Made by a program: the position numbers and the translations under genes. The notes beneath the pieces were generated by a model. It ran no database searches. It was not told where the DNA came from and was given only the letters and a program-made list of their open reading frames with translations. Below, one piece after another: positions 27,277 through 29,877 of a DNA stretch of 32,000 nucleotides (positions within the stretch are counted from its first letter, which is position 1; each line of letters starts with the position of its first letter). Origin of the DNA: Prochlorococcus marinus str. NATL2A (lineage in GTDB: Bacteria > Cyanobacteriota > Cyanobacteriia > PCC-6307 > Cyanobiaceae); the NCBI RefSeq assembly GCF_000012465.1, contig NC_007335.2:360001-392000 (forward strand), in the 5' to 3' direction.

Positions 27277-27291
27277 GCCCTCGTCGGGACC
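27277..27291 (-). repeat. 15-nt exact copy of the 3' end of tRNA-Thr(GGU) (att-like scar)
   Basis: TGCCCTCGTCGGGAC at 27277-27291 is identical to 29806-29820, the 3' acceptor/T-stem end of the tRNA, and in the same orientation. Confidence 0.6.
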
Positions 27292-27663
27292 ACCACTCAC
27301 AACACCTGATAGTGCCTGACAAGAGTTGGTAACTGGAAAGTCGATATTTTTAGAAAATGTCCAACTTATGTACAACTTTTTTAGAAAAAATTAAGGGGTG
27401 GCATTAAAAAAAAAGATTAGACATTAGTAGGTCATATGAAATTAATGATTGGACATTTATTTGTATGCCGTTTTTTTGGATTAAAGGACATAACCAAATT
27501 GGATGACCTCAATCAAGTAGTTGATTGGCAAAATAGTTCGTTTTATCAAGCAACTAATCAATCATCTAGCGTTATTAGTTAAGTATCAATAATCTCAGGA
27601 AGAGGTCAAACTGGCACTTGTAGTATTAGTAGAATTACTTCATACACAAGTTCTTAGAAAATA

Positions 27664-29415
27664 ATGGAATCCAGTGATAAAGATCAAGGGAAAAAGAATA
27701 TACCTAAAATCCAAACATTTACTGTTCCATTTGCTTTAGGTGAAATCCAAGAAAATATAACTATTACTACTAATACTCCCGCTAAACCATCTAAACCATC
27801 TAAACCATCTAAACCATCTAAACCATCTAAACCATCTAAAGAACAAATAATTAATCAAGCAATTCAGTTTCATCTACGAGGTAATATTCCAGAAGCAATA
27901 AAATATTATGAATATTTAATACAGCAAGGTTTCAAGAACCACAATGTTTTTTCTAATTATGGACTCATATTGAAAGATCTAGGAAAATTAAAAGAAGCAG
28001 AAATATCAACACGCAAAGCAATTGAACTCAATCCCAATTACGCAATAGCATTTTCAAATCTGGGAACGATATTGAAAGATCTTGGAAACTTACAAGAAGC
28101 AGAAGTATCCACTCGTAAAGCAATTGAACTCAATACTAATTACGCAGAGGCATATTTAAATCTGGGAACGATATTGAAAGATCTTGGAAACTTAAAAGAA
28201 GCAGAAATATCAACACGCAAAGCAATTGAACTCAATCCCAATTCCGCAATGGCATTTTCAAATCTGGGAACCATATTTATAGATCTTGGAAACTTACAAG
28301 AAGCAGAAGTATCCACTCGTAAAGCAATTGAACTCGATCCCAATTACGCAGAGGCATATTCAAATCTAGGAAATATATTGAAAGATCTTGGCAACTTACA
28401 AGAAGCTGAATTATCACTCCGCAAAGCAATTGAAATCAATCCTGATTTCGCAGAGGCATATTCCAATCTTTCATTATTAGAACTTCTAAAAGGAAATTAT
28501 GAATCTGGTTTAGAAAACTATGAGTTTAGATCTCAAACCAAAAAACCTGCTATTACTCACGCAAATATAAAACTAAAAAAAATCAATAATGAAAAATTAG
28601 ACAAAGGAAACAAACTTTTAGTTGTTAGCGAACAAGGTTTAGGCGATACGCTTCAATATATGCGATACATACCTTACCTACGAAAAAAAGATTTTGATAT
28701 TTCTTTTTGTGCTCAAACAAAACTACATTCATTGATCCAATCATCATGTATTGATCTAAATCCATTAACTCCAGAACAAGCAAGCTTAGTGTCAGAAGGT
28801 GAATGGGTTCCATTATTATCTTTACCTAAATATTTAAAAGTAAGGCCAGAAAATCCAATCGTTTCTGAGCCATATATTTCATCAAATGATGAATTAAATA
28901 AAAAGTGGAAAGACATTCTATCTAAAGAGAAAAGACCCATCATTGGTATTAATTGGCAAGGAAGTCCAGAAATAGAAAAAAGCGTTTATCAAGGACGTTC
29001 AATTCCTTTAGACATATTCTCAATCCTTCTTAAAGAAAATGATATAACAATGCTTTCTTTACAAAAAGGATTTGGTTCAGAACAATTAAATGATTGTTCA
29101 TTTAAAAATGAGTTTGTTGAATGCCAACCACAAATTGATGCGACTTGGGATTTTCTTGAAAATGCTGCCATTATTGAAAACTGTGATTTGATTATTACTT
29201 GTGATACTTCAATTGCTCACTTAGCTGGAGGAATGGGAAAGAAAGTTTGGTTACTGCTAAAAGATATTCCTTTTTGGACTTGGGGACTTGAAAGGGAGAA
29301 TACATTTTGGTATCCATCGATGAAATTATTTCGACAAAAAGAGCGACATAATTGGCAAGAGGTTATGGATAGAGTATCAATCGCAATTACAAAAGAAATG
29401 AAAAAAAATGACTAA
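27664..29415 (+). CDS. TPR-repeat protein fused to a glycosyltransferase family 9 (heptosyltransferase-like) domain
   Basis: 583 aa. The N-terminus has a (PSK)6 linker. It is followed by about 7 TPR units (AIELNPNYAEAYSNLGxILKDLGNLxEAE). The C-terminal half has the GT9-like EQGLGDTLQYMRY and TCDTSIAHLAGGMGK. Confidence 0.85.
   Translation: MESSDKDQGKKNIPKIQTFTVPFALGEIQENITITTNTPAKPSKPSKPSKPSKPSKPSKEQIINQAIQFHLRGNIPEAIKYYEYLIQQGFKNHNVFSNYGLILKDLGKLKEAEISTRKAIELNPNYAIAFSNLGTILKDLGNLQEAEVSTRKAIELNTNYAEAYLNLGTILKDLGNLKEAEISTRKAIELNPNSAMAFSNLGTIFIDLGNLQEAEVSTRKAIELDPNYAEAYSNLGNILKDLGNLQEAELSLRKAIEINPDFAEAYSNLSLLELLKGNYESGLENYEFRSQTKKPAITHANIKLKKINNEKLDKGNKLLVVSEQGLGDTLQYMRYIPYLRKKDFDISFCAQTKLHSLIQSSCIDLNPLTPEQASLVSEGEWVPLLSLPKYLKVRPENPIVSEPYISSNDELNKKWKDILSKEKRPIIGINWQGSPEIEKSVYQGRSIPLDIFSILLKENDITMLSLQKGFGSEQLNDCSFKNEFVECQPQIDATWDFLENAAIIENCDLIITCDTSIAHLAGGMGKKVWLLLKDIPFWTWGLERENTFWYPSMKLFRQKERHNWQEVMDRVSIAITKEMKKND
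27784..27837 (+). repeat. Perfect 9-bp tandem repeat x6 (AAACCATCT) encoding (KPS)6
   Basis: Read directly from the sequence. It is in frame within the TPR/GT9 gene. Confidence 0.95.
27994..28401 (+). repeat. Near-identical 204-bp tandem duplication (two TPR units per copy)
   Basis: 27994-28197 and 28198-28401 differ at only a handful of positions. A third, more diverged unit starts at 28402. Confidence 0.9.
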
Positions 29416-29782
29416 AAAATTGAAATCCTTATCTTCTATTCTCGCTCCAGTCTCTTTAGGAGAATTAATCGATAAAATCACGATTCTAGAAATCAAACAA
29501 ATACATATGACTGGAATAAAATTAAAAAATGTAGATAAAGAACTAAAACTACTAAGAAAAATACTTCAAGATGAAAATTTGGAAATTGATATCGATTTAA
29601 TTAATAATCTCAAAGAAGTAAACAATAACCTTTGGGAAATAGAAGATAAAATAAGGATAAAAGAGAGCAATCAAAAATTTGACAAAGAATTTATTCAAAT
29701 CGCTAGATCAGTTTACAAAGAAAATGATAAGAGAGCTTCTATAAAAAAAAGACCCCATTCAGGGGTCTTTGACTCTACTTAG
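29408..29782 (+). CDS. Small conserved protein, DUF6165-like (often next to TPR/glycosyltransferase genes)
   Basis: 124 aa. APVSLGELIDKITILEIK...NLWEIEDKIR...ARSVYKENDKRASIKK matches my recollection of that family. It overlaps the upstream stop by 8 nt, suggesting translational coupling. Confidence 0.6.
   Translation: MTKKLKSLSSILAPVSLGELIDKITILEIKQIHMTGIKLKNVDKELKLLRKILQDENLEIDIDLINNLKEVNNNLWEIEDKIRIKESNQKFDKEFIQIARSVYKENDKRASIKKRPHSGVFDST
29743..29770 (-). terminator. Intrinsic terminator of the tRNA-Tyr/tRNA-Thr transcription unit
   Basis: On the minus strand, AAAGACCCC-TGAAT-GGGGTC is followed by T8. It lies 36 nt downstream of the tRNA-Thr 3' end. Confidence 0.6.
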
Positions 29783-29805
29783 GTGCTCTTGGTAGAGGGT
29801 CTGAG

Positions 29806-29877
29806 TGCCCTCGTCGGGACTTGAACCCGAGACCTCTCCCTTACCAAGGGAGTGCTCTACCGCTGAGCTACAAGGGC
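29806..29877 (-). tRNA. tRNA-Thr (anticodon GGU)
   Basis: The reverse complement GCCCTTGTAGCTCAGCGGTAGAGCACTCCCTTGGTAAGGGAGAGGTCTCGGGTTCAAGTCCCGACGAGGGCA folds as a clean cloverleaf. Confidence 0.95.

Follow-up and report, generated by a model that had tools for sequence, protein, structure and literature searches.

In the attachment (att) sites of tyrosine integrases of the lambda/P4 type, a short core is common to attB, attP, attL and attR, and both arms of attP carry direct repeats. Cis-mobilisable elements (CIMEs) are reportedly left by integrative and conjugative elements (ICEs) in Streptococcus thermophilus, and high-light (HL) strains of Prochlorococcus are said to contain genomic islands flanked by tRNA genes, at tRNAs other than the one treated here. 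Tycheposons and 'cryptic' integrase elements have been described from Prochlorococcus islands at seven tRNAs, namely Pro-tgg, Ser-tga, Ala-ggc, Thr-ggt, Arg-tct, Met-cat and tmRNA, together with stacked elements with partial tRNAs between them, fragmented integrases, scattered partial tRNAs and degenerated elements (Hackl et al., bioRxiv 10.1101/2020.12.28.424599). The present locus lies in a window of 32,000 nt (the whole stretch of DNA that was analysed) from Prochlorococcus marinus str. NATL2A (contig NC_007335.2, positions 360,001 to 392,000). Its block 27291-29805, which touches tRNA-Thr(GGU), a tRNA type of the published list, at 29806, is very probably the remnant of a tycheposon-like integrative element that recombined site-specifically, via a 15-nt core, with the 3' end of this tRNA and has since decayed. 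It is a clear but ordinary case of a process already described in Prochlorococcus islands, at a published hotspot.

Positions are those of the window unless stated otherwise. G000 denotes the NATL2A genome (one contig, 1,842,899 bp), all other G-labels denote related genomes of the genus, and L065, L066 and L088 are contigs from ocean metagenomes.

The duplicated tRNA end and the empty site

The sequence TGCCCTCGTCGGGAC is present as an exact 15-mer at 27276-27290 and at 29806-29820, in direct orientation. Its proximal copy constitutes the last 15 nt of tRNA-Thr(GGU), discriminator included (ARAGORN, Rfam). With a complete tRNA on one side and a partial tRNA on the other, the attachment motif is present on both sides of the block as a 15-nt direct repeat. 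An earlier note on this DNA had recognised the exact duplicate of the tRNA end and its direct orientation; the distal coordinate given there (27277-27291) has to be corrected. The expectation of the same note that a chance match is very unlikely agrees with a shuffle control, in which none of 100 dinucleotide-preserving shuffles of the window contained two or more matches with two mismatches allowed (expected 0.03), and with a search for further copies, which found only these two in the entire genome, also with one mismatch allowed. The features at the two ends are as follows.

27276..27290, plus strand: distal copy of the 15-nt core, core of the attR-like site
29806..29877, minus strand: tRNA-Thr(GGU) (ARAGORN, Rfam); its terminal 15 nt are the proximal core, attL-like site
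27196..27275, minus strand: A arm, displaced 3' trailer of tRNA-Thr, 85-92% identical to tRNA-abutting sequence in relatives
27269..27287, no strand assigned: inverted repeat CCGACGA-TGCCC-TCGTCGG, spanning the trailer/core junction, read from the sequence

The A arm comprises the 62-80 nt left of the distal core that resemble the sequence abutting the complete tRNA in relatives, and it ends with ...TCTCTTTGATGTCCCTCCGACGA. In at least ten related genomes, including G012, G043, G053, G049, G007, G001 and G051, it lies directly against the tRNA. These are the empty, attB-like sites ending exactly at the repeat that the earlier note had proposed to look for. In G000, by comparison, trailer and tRNA are separated by 2515 additional bases, which the 15-nt duplicate delimits. 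The distal junction of the window is absent from all 41 other genomes of the genus, and the segment 27291-27473 is likewise unmatched there.

In genomes where the A arm lies against the tRNA, its intrinsic terminator is always intact, with predicted folding energies from -17 to -38 kcal/mol; in the displaced copy of G000 the stem is lost and the hairpin (approximately 27213-27239) reaches -9.8 kcal/mol, as would be expected if selection on it has been relaxed after the insertion. The inverted repeat was likewise present as noted earlier. Nonetheless, it is not a product of the scar: CCGACGA precedes the tRNA at every A-type and B-type junction of relatives (for type B see below), and the repeat is a pairing of this conserved trailer with the tRNA end.

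The parent element and its attachment sites

Metagenome contigs were scanned for the core followed directly by the initial 10 nt of the insert, and the matches were L065 (3.9 kb) and L066 (3.0 kb). On both contigs, a stretch identical to 29744-29820 of the window (100%), the C arm with the core, is joined via the core to the left arm of the block (27276-27401, 94-95% identity). The two arms of the element in the window are composed as follows.

27291..27478, plus strand: left arm of the element; 27291-27401 conserved, 94-95% identical to L065/L066 right after the core; aligns with L088/L089
27357-27365 and 27368-27376: ATGTCCAAC-type repeats in the left arm, the second with one mismatch
27402-27451: insert of 50 nt in the left arm, specific to G000
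27452-27478: tail of the left arm, homologous to the region upstream of the element's serine recombinase
29744..29805, minus strand: C arm, right end of the element, 62 bp, now the trailer of tRNA-Thr; bidirectional terminator with hairpin 29750-29768

Identity of the C arm is 100% with L066 and 99% with G042. About 35 nt beyond the tRNA, this arm forms a perfect hairpin with a U-run (-24.5 kcal/mol), and it abuts the tRNA, in attL configuration, in G000, G042, G005, G010 and G009; in G005 an excisionase gene lies beside it. The attP-like configuration, with C arm, core and left arm contiguous, occurs in L065 and L066, and the attR configuration of A arm, core and left arm in G000 and L088. 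On L088, the A arm is followed by a diverged core, the left arm and then the genes for the recombinase, the ParB-methyltransferase and p258 (see below), and this contig thus shows the attR of the window in a state that still includes the element. Judged from these junctions, all four att configurations with one core are present in natural DNA.

Genes are present on both sides of the attP-like junction. Left of the C arm, L066 encodes an excisionase-like protein (HTH_17) and then the N-terminus of an integrase (phrog_1, 4e-13), of which the contig holds only the 242 N-terminal residues. Right of the left arm follow a Resolvase-family serine recombinase of 191/198 aa (PF00239, 2e-24), a DNA-methyltransferase fusion (ParB_N + N6_N4_Mtase) with relatives of only 40% identity in the genus, a 258-aa protein without family match (p258), and a small protein, probably of the RHH type as judged by eye only. 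Genes for a primase, helicase or polymerase were recognised neither on these parent contigs nor in the block of the window. The empty sites in relatives and this attP-like junction beside integrase and excisionase genes support the site-specific integration at a tRNA 3' end that the earlier note had proposed.

Patterns of the exact junction and of the arm repeats had no match in viral contigs. The exact serine recombinase is not on record in the protein look-up, and further look-ups of element proteins returned the same short contigs only, with no full-length parent assembled. A homologue of the recombinase with 90% identity (P0002) is encoded on contigs of 6-8.6 kb together with a 440-aa integrase. 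These contigs were rejected as representatives of the same insertion system, as the homologue lies beside a different att region and next to argJ.

The attP region of L066 contains five direct ATGTCCAAC repeats within 280 bp, compared with 16 copies in the whole 1.84-Mb genome. Three of them are located 145-179 bp from the core on the C side and two 81-92 bp from it on the other side. G000 retains only the two left-arm repeats; the three on the C side are gone. By analogy with lambda/P4-type sites, the ATGTCCAAC repeats are candidate arm-type integrase sites. The tyrosine integrase is the likely integrating enzyme, because the att site is adjacent to the integrase and excisionase genes, integration was directed at a tRNA 3' end and the attP core is flanked by the five repeats.

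Loss of the mobility genes

The enclosed block of 2515 bp encodes a 583-aa TPR protein, an overlapping 124-aa DUF6165 protein and a 48-aa open reading frame (ORF). In line with the earlier note, neither the ORFs nor family searches revealed a recombinase within 27291-29805. The tiny ORFs mentioned there are represented by the 48-aa ORF, which can be given a more precise identity as a stub of the element's p258 gene.

27436..27582, plus strand: 48-aa ORF; 27475-27561 are the 3' remnant of the p258 gene

From 27475 on, this ORF encodes ...GLKDITKLDDLNQVVDWQNSSFY, which matches the C-terminus of p258; residues 226-254 of p258 align with 27475-27561 at 59% identity, the sole match in the genome (tblastn). 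Near 27478 lies a first deletion junction, where the region upstream of the recombinase gene and the p258 gene share the microhomology ATGCCnTT..TG. A single deletion of roughly 3.2 kb would have removed the recombinase, the ParB-methyltransferase and most of p258, since the left-arm homology passes directly into the p258 3' end at this microhomology.

The second junction is located at 29744-29750, where the microhomology ATAAAAAAAGA is present in both partners. Homology of the DUF6165 gene to its paralogues ends at 29749, and the window copy then runs into the C-arm terminator, from which its last 11 codons are read. The paralogue at genome positions 1449034-1449367 (92% nucleotide identity) continues for 23 more codons. 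This second putative deletion took everything from the DUF6165 gene to the last 62 bp of the C arm, including the integrase and excisionase genes and the three C-side repeats.

The history of the locus can be reconstructed as follows. The insertion displaced the earlier tRNA trailer, i.e. the A arm, together with the 15-nt copy of the tRNA end, as the comparison with relatives shows, and set the right arm of the element with its fresh terminator against the tRNA. The parent would have carried the tyrosine integrase and the excisionase by the C arm, and the serine recombinase, the ParB-methyltransferase fusion and the 258-aa gene by the left arm, in the arrangement seen on the metagenome contigs. 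The two microhomology-mediated deletions, whose junctions are seen and whose timing is inferred, would then have stripped off all mobility genes and three repeats, leaving behind two cargo genes, one TPR-glycosyltransferase-like and one a truncated DUF6165 gene.

In G000, no Resolvase-family gene was found, and the sole gene with PF00589 encodes a 386-aa protein next to a CobA-like gene. This gene occurs once each in 18 of 18 high-quality genomes of the genus (79-95% identity), and its constant single copy points to a housekeeping, Xer-like core gene. As the genome contains no cognate recombinase and the attL-like site lacks arm repeats, we infer that the block is fixed, stranded cargo and not a mobile unit. 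The earlier note had also called it stranded, and the missing element-type recombinase and the lost C-side repeats both agree with that view.

Cargo genes

The two cargo genes are the following.

27664..29415, plus strand: cargo gene 1, 583-aa TPR protein with a C-terminal glycosyltransferase-like domain (Pfam TPR_1, 1e-43)
29408..29782, plus strand: cargo gene 2, DUF6165 (Pfam PF19662, 3e-10, profile positions 5-99 of 134)

The 583-aa protein contains five or more TPR repeats. The earlier note had labelled its gene as TPR/GT9. The TPR part is well supported; the GT9 match remains below the family cut-off of Pfam (16.5 bits vs 22), and it is the homologues that carry PF01075. These homologues number thousands, some of them with precomputed PF01075, and some bear the NCBI name 'TPR repeat-containing glycosyltransferase family protein'. 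The homologue names in the protein search point to Prochlorococcus (MIT 0801, MIT 0916 and others). A search for a sequence match of the C-terminal domain in the PDB gave none. Near the N-terminus, six tandem copies of the 9-nt unit AAACCATCT at 27787-27840 encode (KPS)x6, which could be a length-variable tract.

The 3'-truncated DUF6165 gene overlaps the stop codon of gene 1 by 8 nt. A metagenome protein of 931 aa (P0122) fuses TPR, GT9 (PF01075) and DUF6165 (PF19662) in one chain, which supports a functional link between the two overlapping cargo genes. Going by the family names, a role in the modification of a surface or protein glycan may be guessed.

Cargo gene 1 belongs to a multi-copy family of paralogues with nucleotide identities of about 78-80%. 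Between 29415 and 29749, the DUF6165 gene is 92% identical to the paralogue mentioned above, which lies 1.06 Mb away, and the adjoining TPR-glycosyltransferase genes are only 78% identical; the contrast suggests that the paralogues are mosaic or have undergone gene conversion among themselves. At many loci of the genus (L030-L045, L064; window 27474-27680), 3' fragments of p258, ranging from residues 25-254 down to 218-254, precede TPR-glycosyltransferase paralogues, and in G041 a TPR gene is located between a p258 fragment and the p70/p102 genes of the element. This recurrent arrangement seems to tie the type of cargo to the backbone of the element.

The tRNA-Thr hotspot in related genomes

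In relatives, the same tRNA is occupied by other elements, and the neighbouring tRNA is affected as well.

29889..29970, minus strand: tRNA-Tyr(GUA), co-oriented with tRNA-Thr and, in some relatives, duplicated jointly with it by other elements

Trailer type B is an arm next to a 326-aa tyrosine integrase. The complete enzyme is encoded in G002 (L027:4226-12480), together with a 623-aa TPR protein, on an 8-kb element. This element is bounded by two 100% identical tRNA-Thr/tRNA-Tyr pairs, a direct repeat of more than 166 bp that includes both tRNAs and not a short core. In G022, G024, G003 and G021, the 326-aa integrase is truncated to different extents. A search for recombinase-bearing elements at this tRNA, as suggested in the earlier note, was thus successful twice, with the integrase of G002 and with the integrase, excisionase and serine recombinase beside the cognate attP in the metagenome contigs.

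In G043, a displaced C arm with a 21-nt core precedes a gene for a 426-aa integrase; an A arm that touches the tRNA lies another 14.6 kb away. The locus of G001 (L112:2819-5284) is a mirror image of that of the window: a displaced C arm with a 12-nt core, a 2.3-kb block without integrase and an A arm abutting tRNA-Thr. This block encodes a 424-aa TPR protein with a C-terminal half that resembles a methyltransferase, as judged by eye only. With displaced C arms lying distal to A arms in G001 and G043, the A arm was rejected as the native trailer of the tRNA; since both stacking orders of A and C arms occur, the A arm itself is probably the end of an older element.

It is conceivable but quite improbable that such integrase-less TPR-enzyme blocks, of 2.5 kb in the window and 2.3 kb in the mirror-image locus, form a class of non-autonomous 'mini-tycheposons' that are shuffled in trans by autonomous elements with A and C arms. 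If so, they would spread variants of cell-surface modification genes.

Whole tRNAs are also found within these islands. In the inner island of G022 (L024:1111-1281), a copy derived from tRNA-Thr is read by ARAGORN as tRNA-Leu(GAG) and accompanied by a second tRNA-Tyr, the extra pair being 87% identical to the resident one. G013 (L059:8448-8519) contains an extra tRNA-Thr(CGU). Entire tRNA copies whose anticodons have changed can be part of elements at this site.

Island setting and other partial tRNAs

In the listed relatives of the genus, right-hand synteny starts at 29806, or 2-67 bases earlier where the C arm is shared, and left-hand synteny ends at approximately 22450-22590. As conserved synteny stops there and resumes at the tRNA 3' end, the region 22.5-29.8 kb is regarded as a variable island on the downstream side of tRNA-Thr. 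Within it lie hli genes, DUF3804, DUF1651 and two Cyano-1 RNAs, and as a whole it is a stack of decayed elements. A remnant of a tRNA pair at 24584-24667, a site occupied by one in relatives, was not found.

Rfam matches at 22246-22308, 22482-22546 and 26958-27022 correspond to a glutamine-II riboswitch and the two Cyano-1 copies, the first of which delimits the variable island on its left side. The stretch 27079-27193, a 37-aa ORF with its surroundings, belongs to a sequence family with multiple copies in the genus (77-93% identity). In G055, G056 and G057, members of this family occur within tRNA-Thr islands, at a distance of about 0.6 kb from a 215-aa serine recombinase that belongs to another family.

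Outside the window, G000 contains further exact partial tRNA copies, each of them a 3' end located a few kb away from the respective tRNA.

Genome position ~349,696: partial tRNA-Phe(GAA) copy, 32 nt (tRNA at 352,470-352,545)
Genome position ~1,108,841: partial tRNA-Pro(TGG) copy, 47 nt
Genome position ~1,322,445: partial tRNA-Arg(TCT) copy, 48 nt
Genome position ~1,328,225: partial tRNA-Ala(GGC) copy, 15 nt

Among these, tRNA-Phe(GAA) is absent from the list of seven island tRNAs in the preprint.

Alternative explanations

Several observations weigh against integration and subsequent decay of an element at this tRNA. The core measures only 15 nt, and three of the four other scars in the genome, which range from 15 to 48 nt, are longer (32-48 nt). 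The site of the relatives is 'empty' only relative to this one insertion, the A arm probably being an element end itself. The serine-recombinase homologues with 90% identity lie beside a different att region, so the gene is not tied to this site. No complete parent with the TPR-glycosyltransferase/DUF6165 cargo was recovered, and the link between cargo and backbone consists of the p258 stub and of p258 fragments before TPR paralogues at many other loci. The attP-like contigs of 3-4 kb, moreover, need not represent an excised circle; copies integrated in tandem could also have given rise to them. Finally, instead of integration and decay in this lineage, an already decayed block may have been imported together with neighbouring island DNA.

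Such an import, in which the tRNA-proximal segment of the island, scar included, would have come from another cell by homologous recombination via the flanking core genes, is rather unlikely. The content of the island is mosaic among relatives, the distal junction, shared by 0 of the 41 other genomes, leaves its history untraceable, and the C arm is 99-100% identical to G042 and metagenome DNA at flanking core DNA identities of about 91%, points that speak for an import. However, a complete replacement of an island was never seen in the tycheposon preprint (bioRxiv 10.1101/2020.12.28.424599), and the import would alter only the place of the integration and not the nature of the structure.

Very improbable is a second account, by which the block would be a non-autonomous miniature element of the CIME type that arrived as the present 2.5 kb, was mobilised in trans by the integrase of an autonomous element and could move again. 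Core copies at both ends and the lack of a recombinase are compatible with such an element, and the 2.3-kb mirror-image module of G001 hints that small integrase-less TPR-enzyme modules recur. Yet the C arm is only 62 bp long and without the three ATGTCCAAC repeats of attP, and an attP without repeats should integrate poorly, if general knowledge of lambda/P4-type sites can be transferred by analogy. Both internal junctions cut genes, giving rise to the p258 stub and the truncated DUF6165 gene, which argues for decay and not for a designed cassette. In addition, a cognate recombinase is missing from the genome, and the block's gene is found on 15 other contigs (assemblies with identical proteins), with the same context at the four distinct places displayed.

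That the duplicate arose by chance, or as a by-product of illegitimate recombination or local duplication, is hardly conceivable, for the repeat is short (15 nt) but stands out against the shuffles and the genome-wide count given above, the sequence left of its distal copy is the tRNA trailer of many relatives, and the inner flanks of both copies are contiguous in metagenome DNA by integrase and excisionase genes.

Comparison with known systems

Understood as a decayed tycheposon-like element, the block provides a base-resolved example of how Prochlorococcus islands are built, with four att configurations and two fixing deletions mapped. It also shows that the tRNA operon receives a new terminator from the element that inserts, and that the displaced terminator decays. 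The arm sequences and the candidate integrase-binding repeats are additions to the published model, which is illustrated and left unchanged.

The locus shares with tycheposons and 'cryptic' integrase elements the tRNA-Thr(ggt) site, the bounds by a full and a partial tRNA, the stacked remnants and a cargo of unknown or cell-surface-type function (Hackl et al., bioRxiv 10.1101/2020.12.28.424599). The cognate metagenome element likewise encodes a tyrosine integrase, an excisionase and a small serine recombinase, gene types listed there. In contrast, the block of the window contains neither an integrase nor a replication module, and its core has 15 nt vs 'around 40' as typical in that study. The parent may have belonged to the 'cryptic' half of those elements, because its contigs carry only the ParB-methyltransferase and the 258-aa gene and no recognised replication gene.

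Similar to CIMEs, the block has att sites at both ends and no integration or transfer genes, is placed in tandem with others at a tRNA-type site and was born by deletion; its arms match an element that bears integrase and excisionase genes. Unlike CIMEs, one of its att sites is without the presumed arm-type repeats, and no cognate helper is present. A CIME-like mobilisation in trans is therefore predicted to be unlikely, the three missing C-side repeats arguing, by analogy, against competence of the site.

The resemblance to lambda/P4-type att sites comprises the integrase and excisionase genes that adjoin attP and the tRNA 3' end as a target that is reconstituted by the element. It differs in that the ATGTCCAAC repeats are only putative binding sites of the integrase and that a small serine recombinase also adjoins the site, where it may serve in multimer resolution, inversion or integration. 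Lastly, the variable island downstream of a tRNA, the repeats of tRNA 3' ends and the hli and small-RNA genes are features in common with the islands of high-light Prochlorococcus; here, in contrast, the att sites of one specific element are resolved, and this in a genome of the LLI type.

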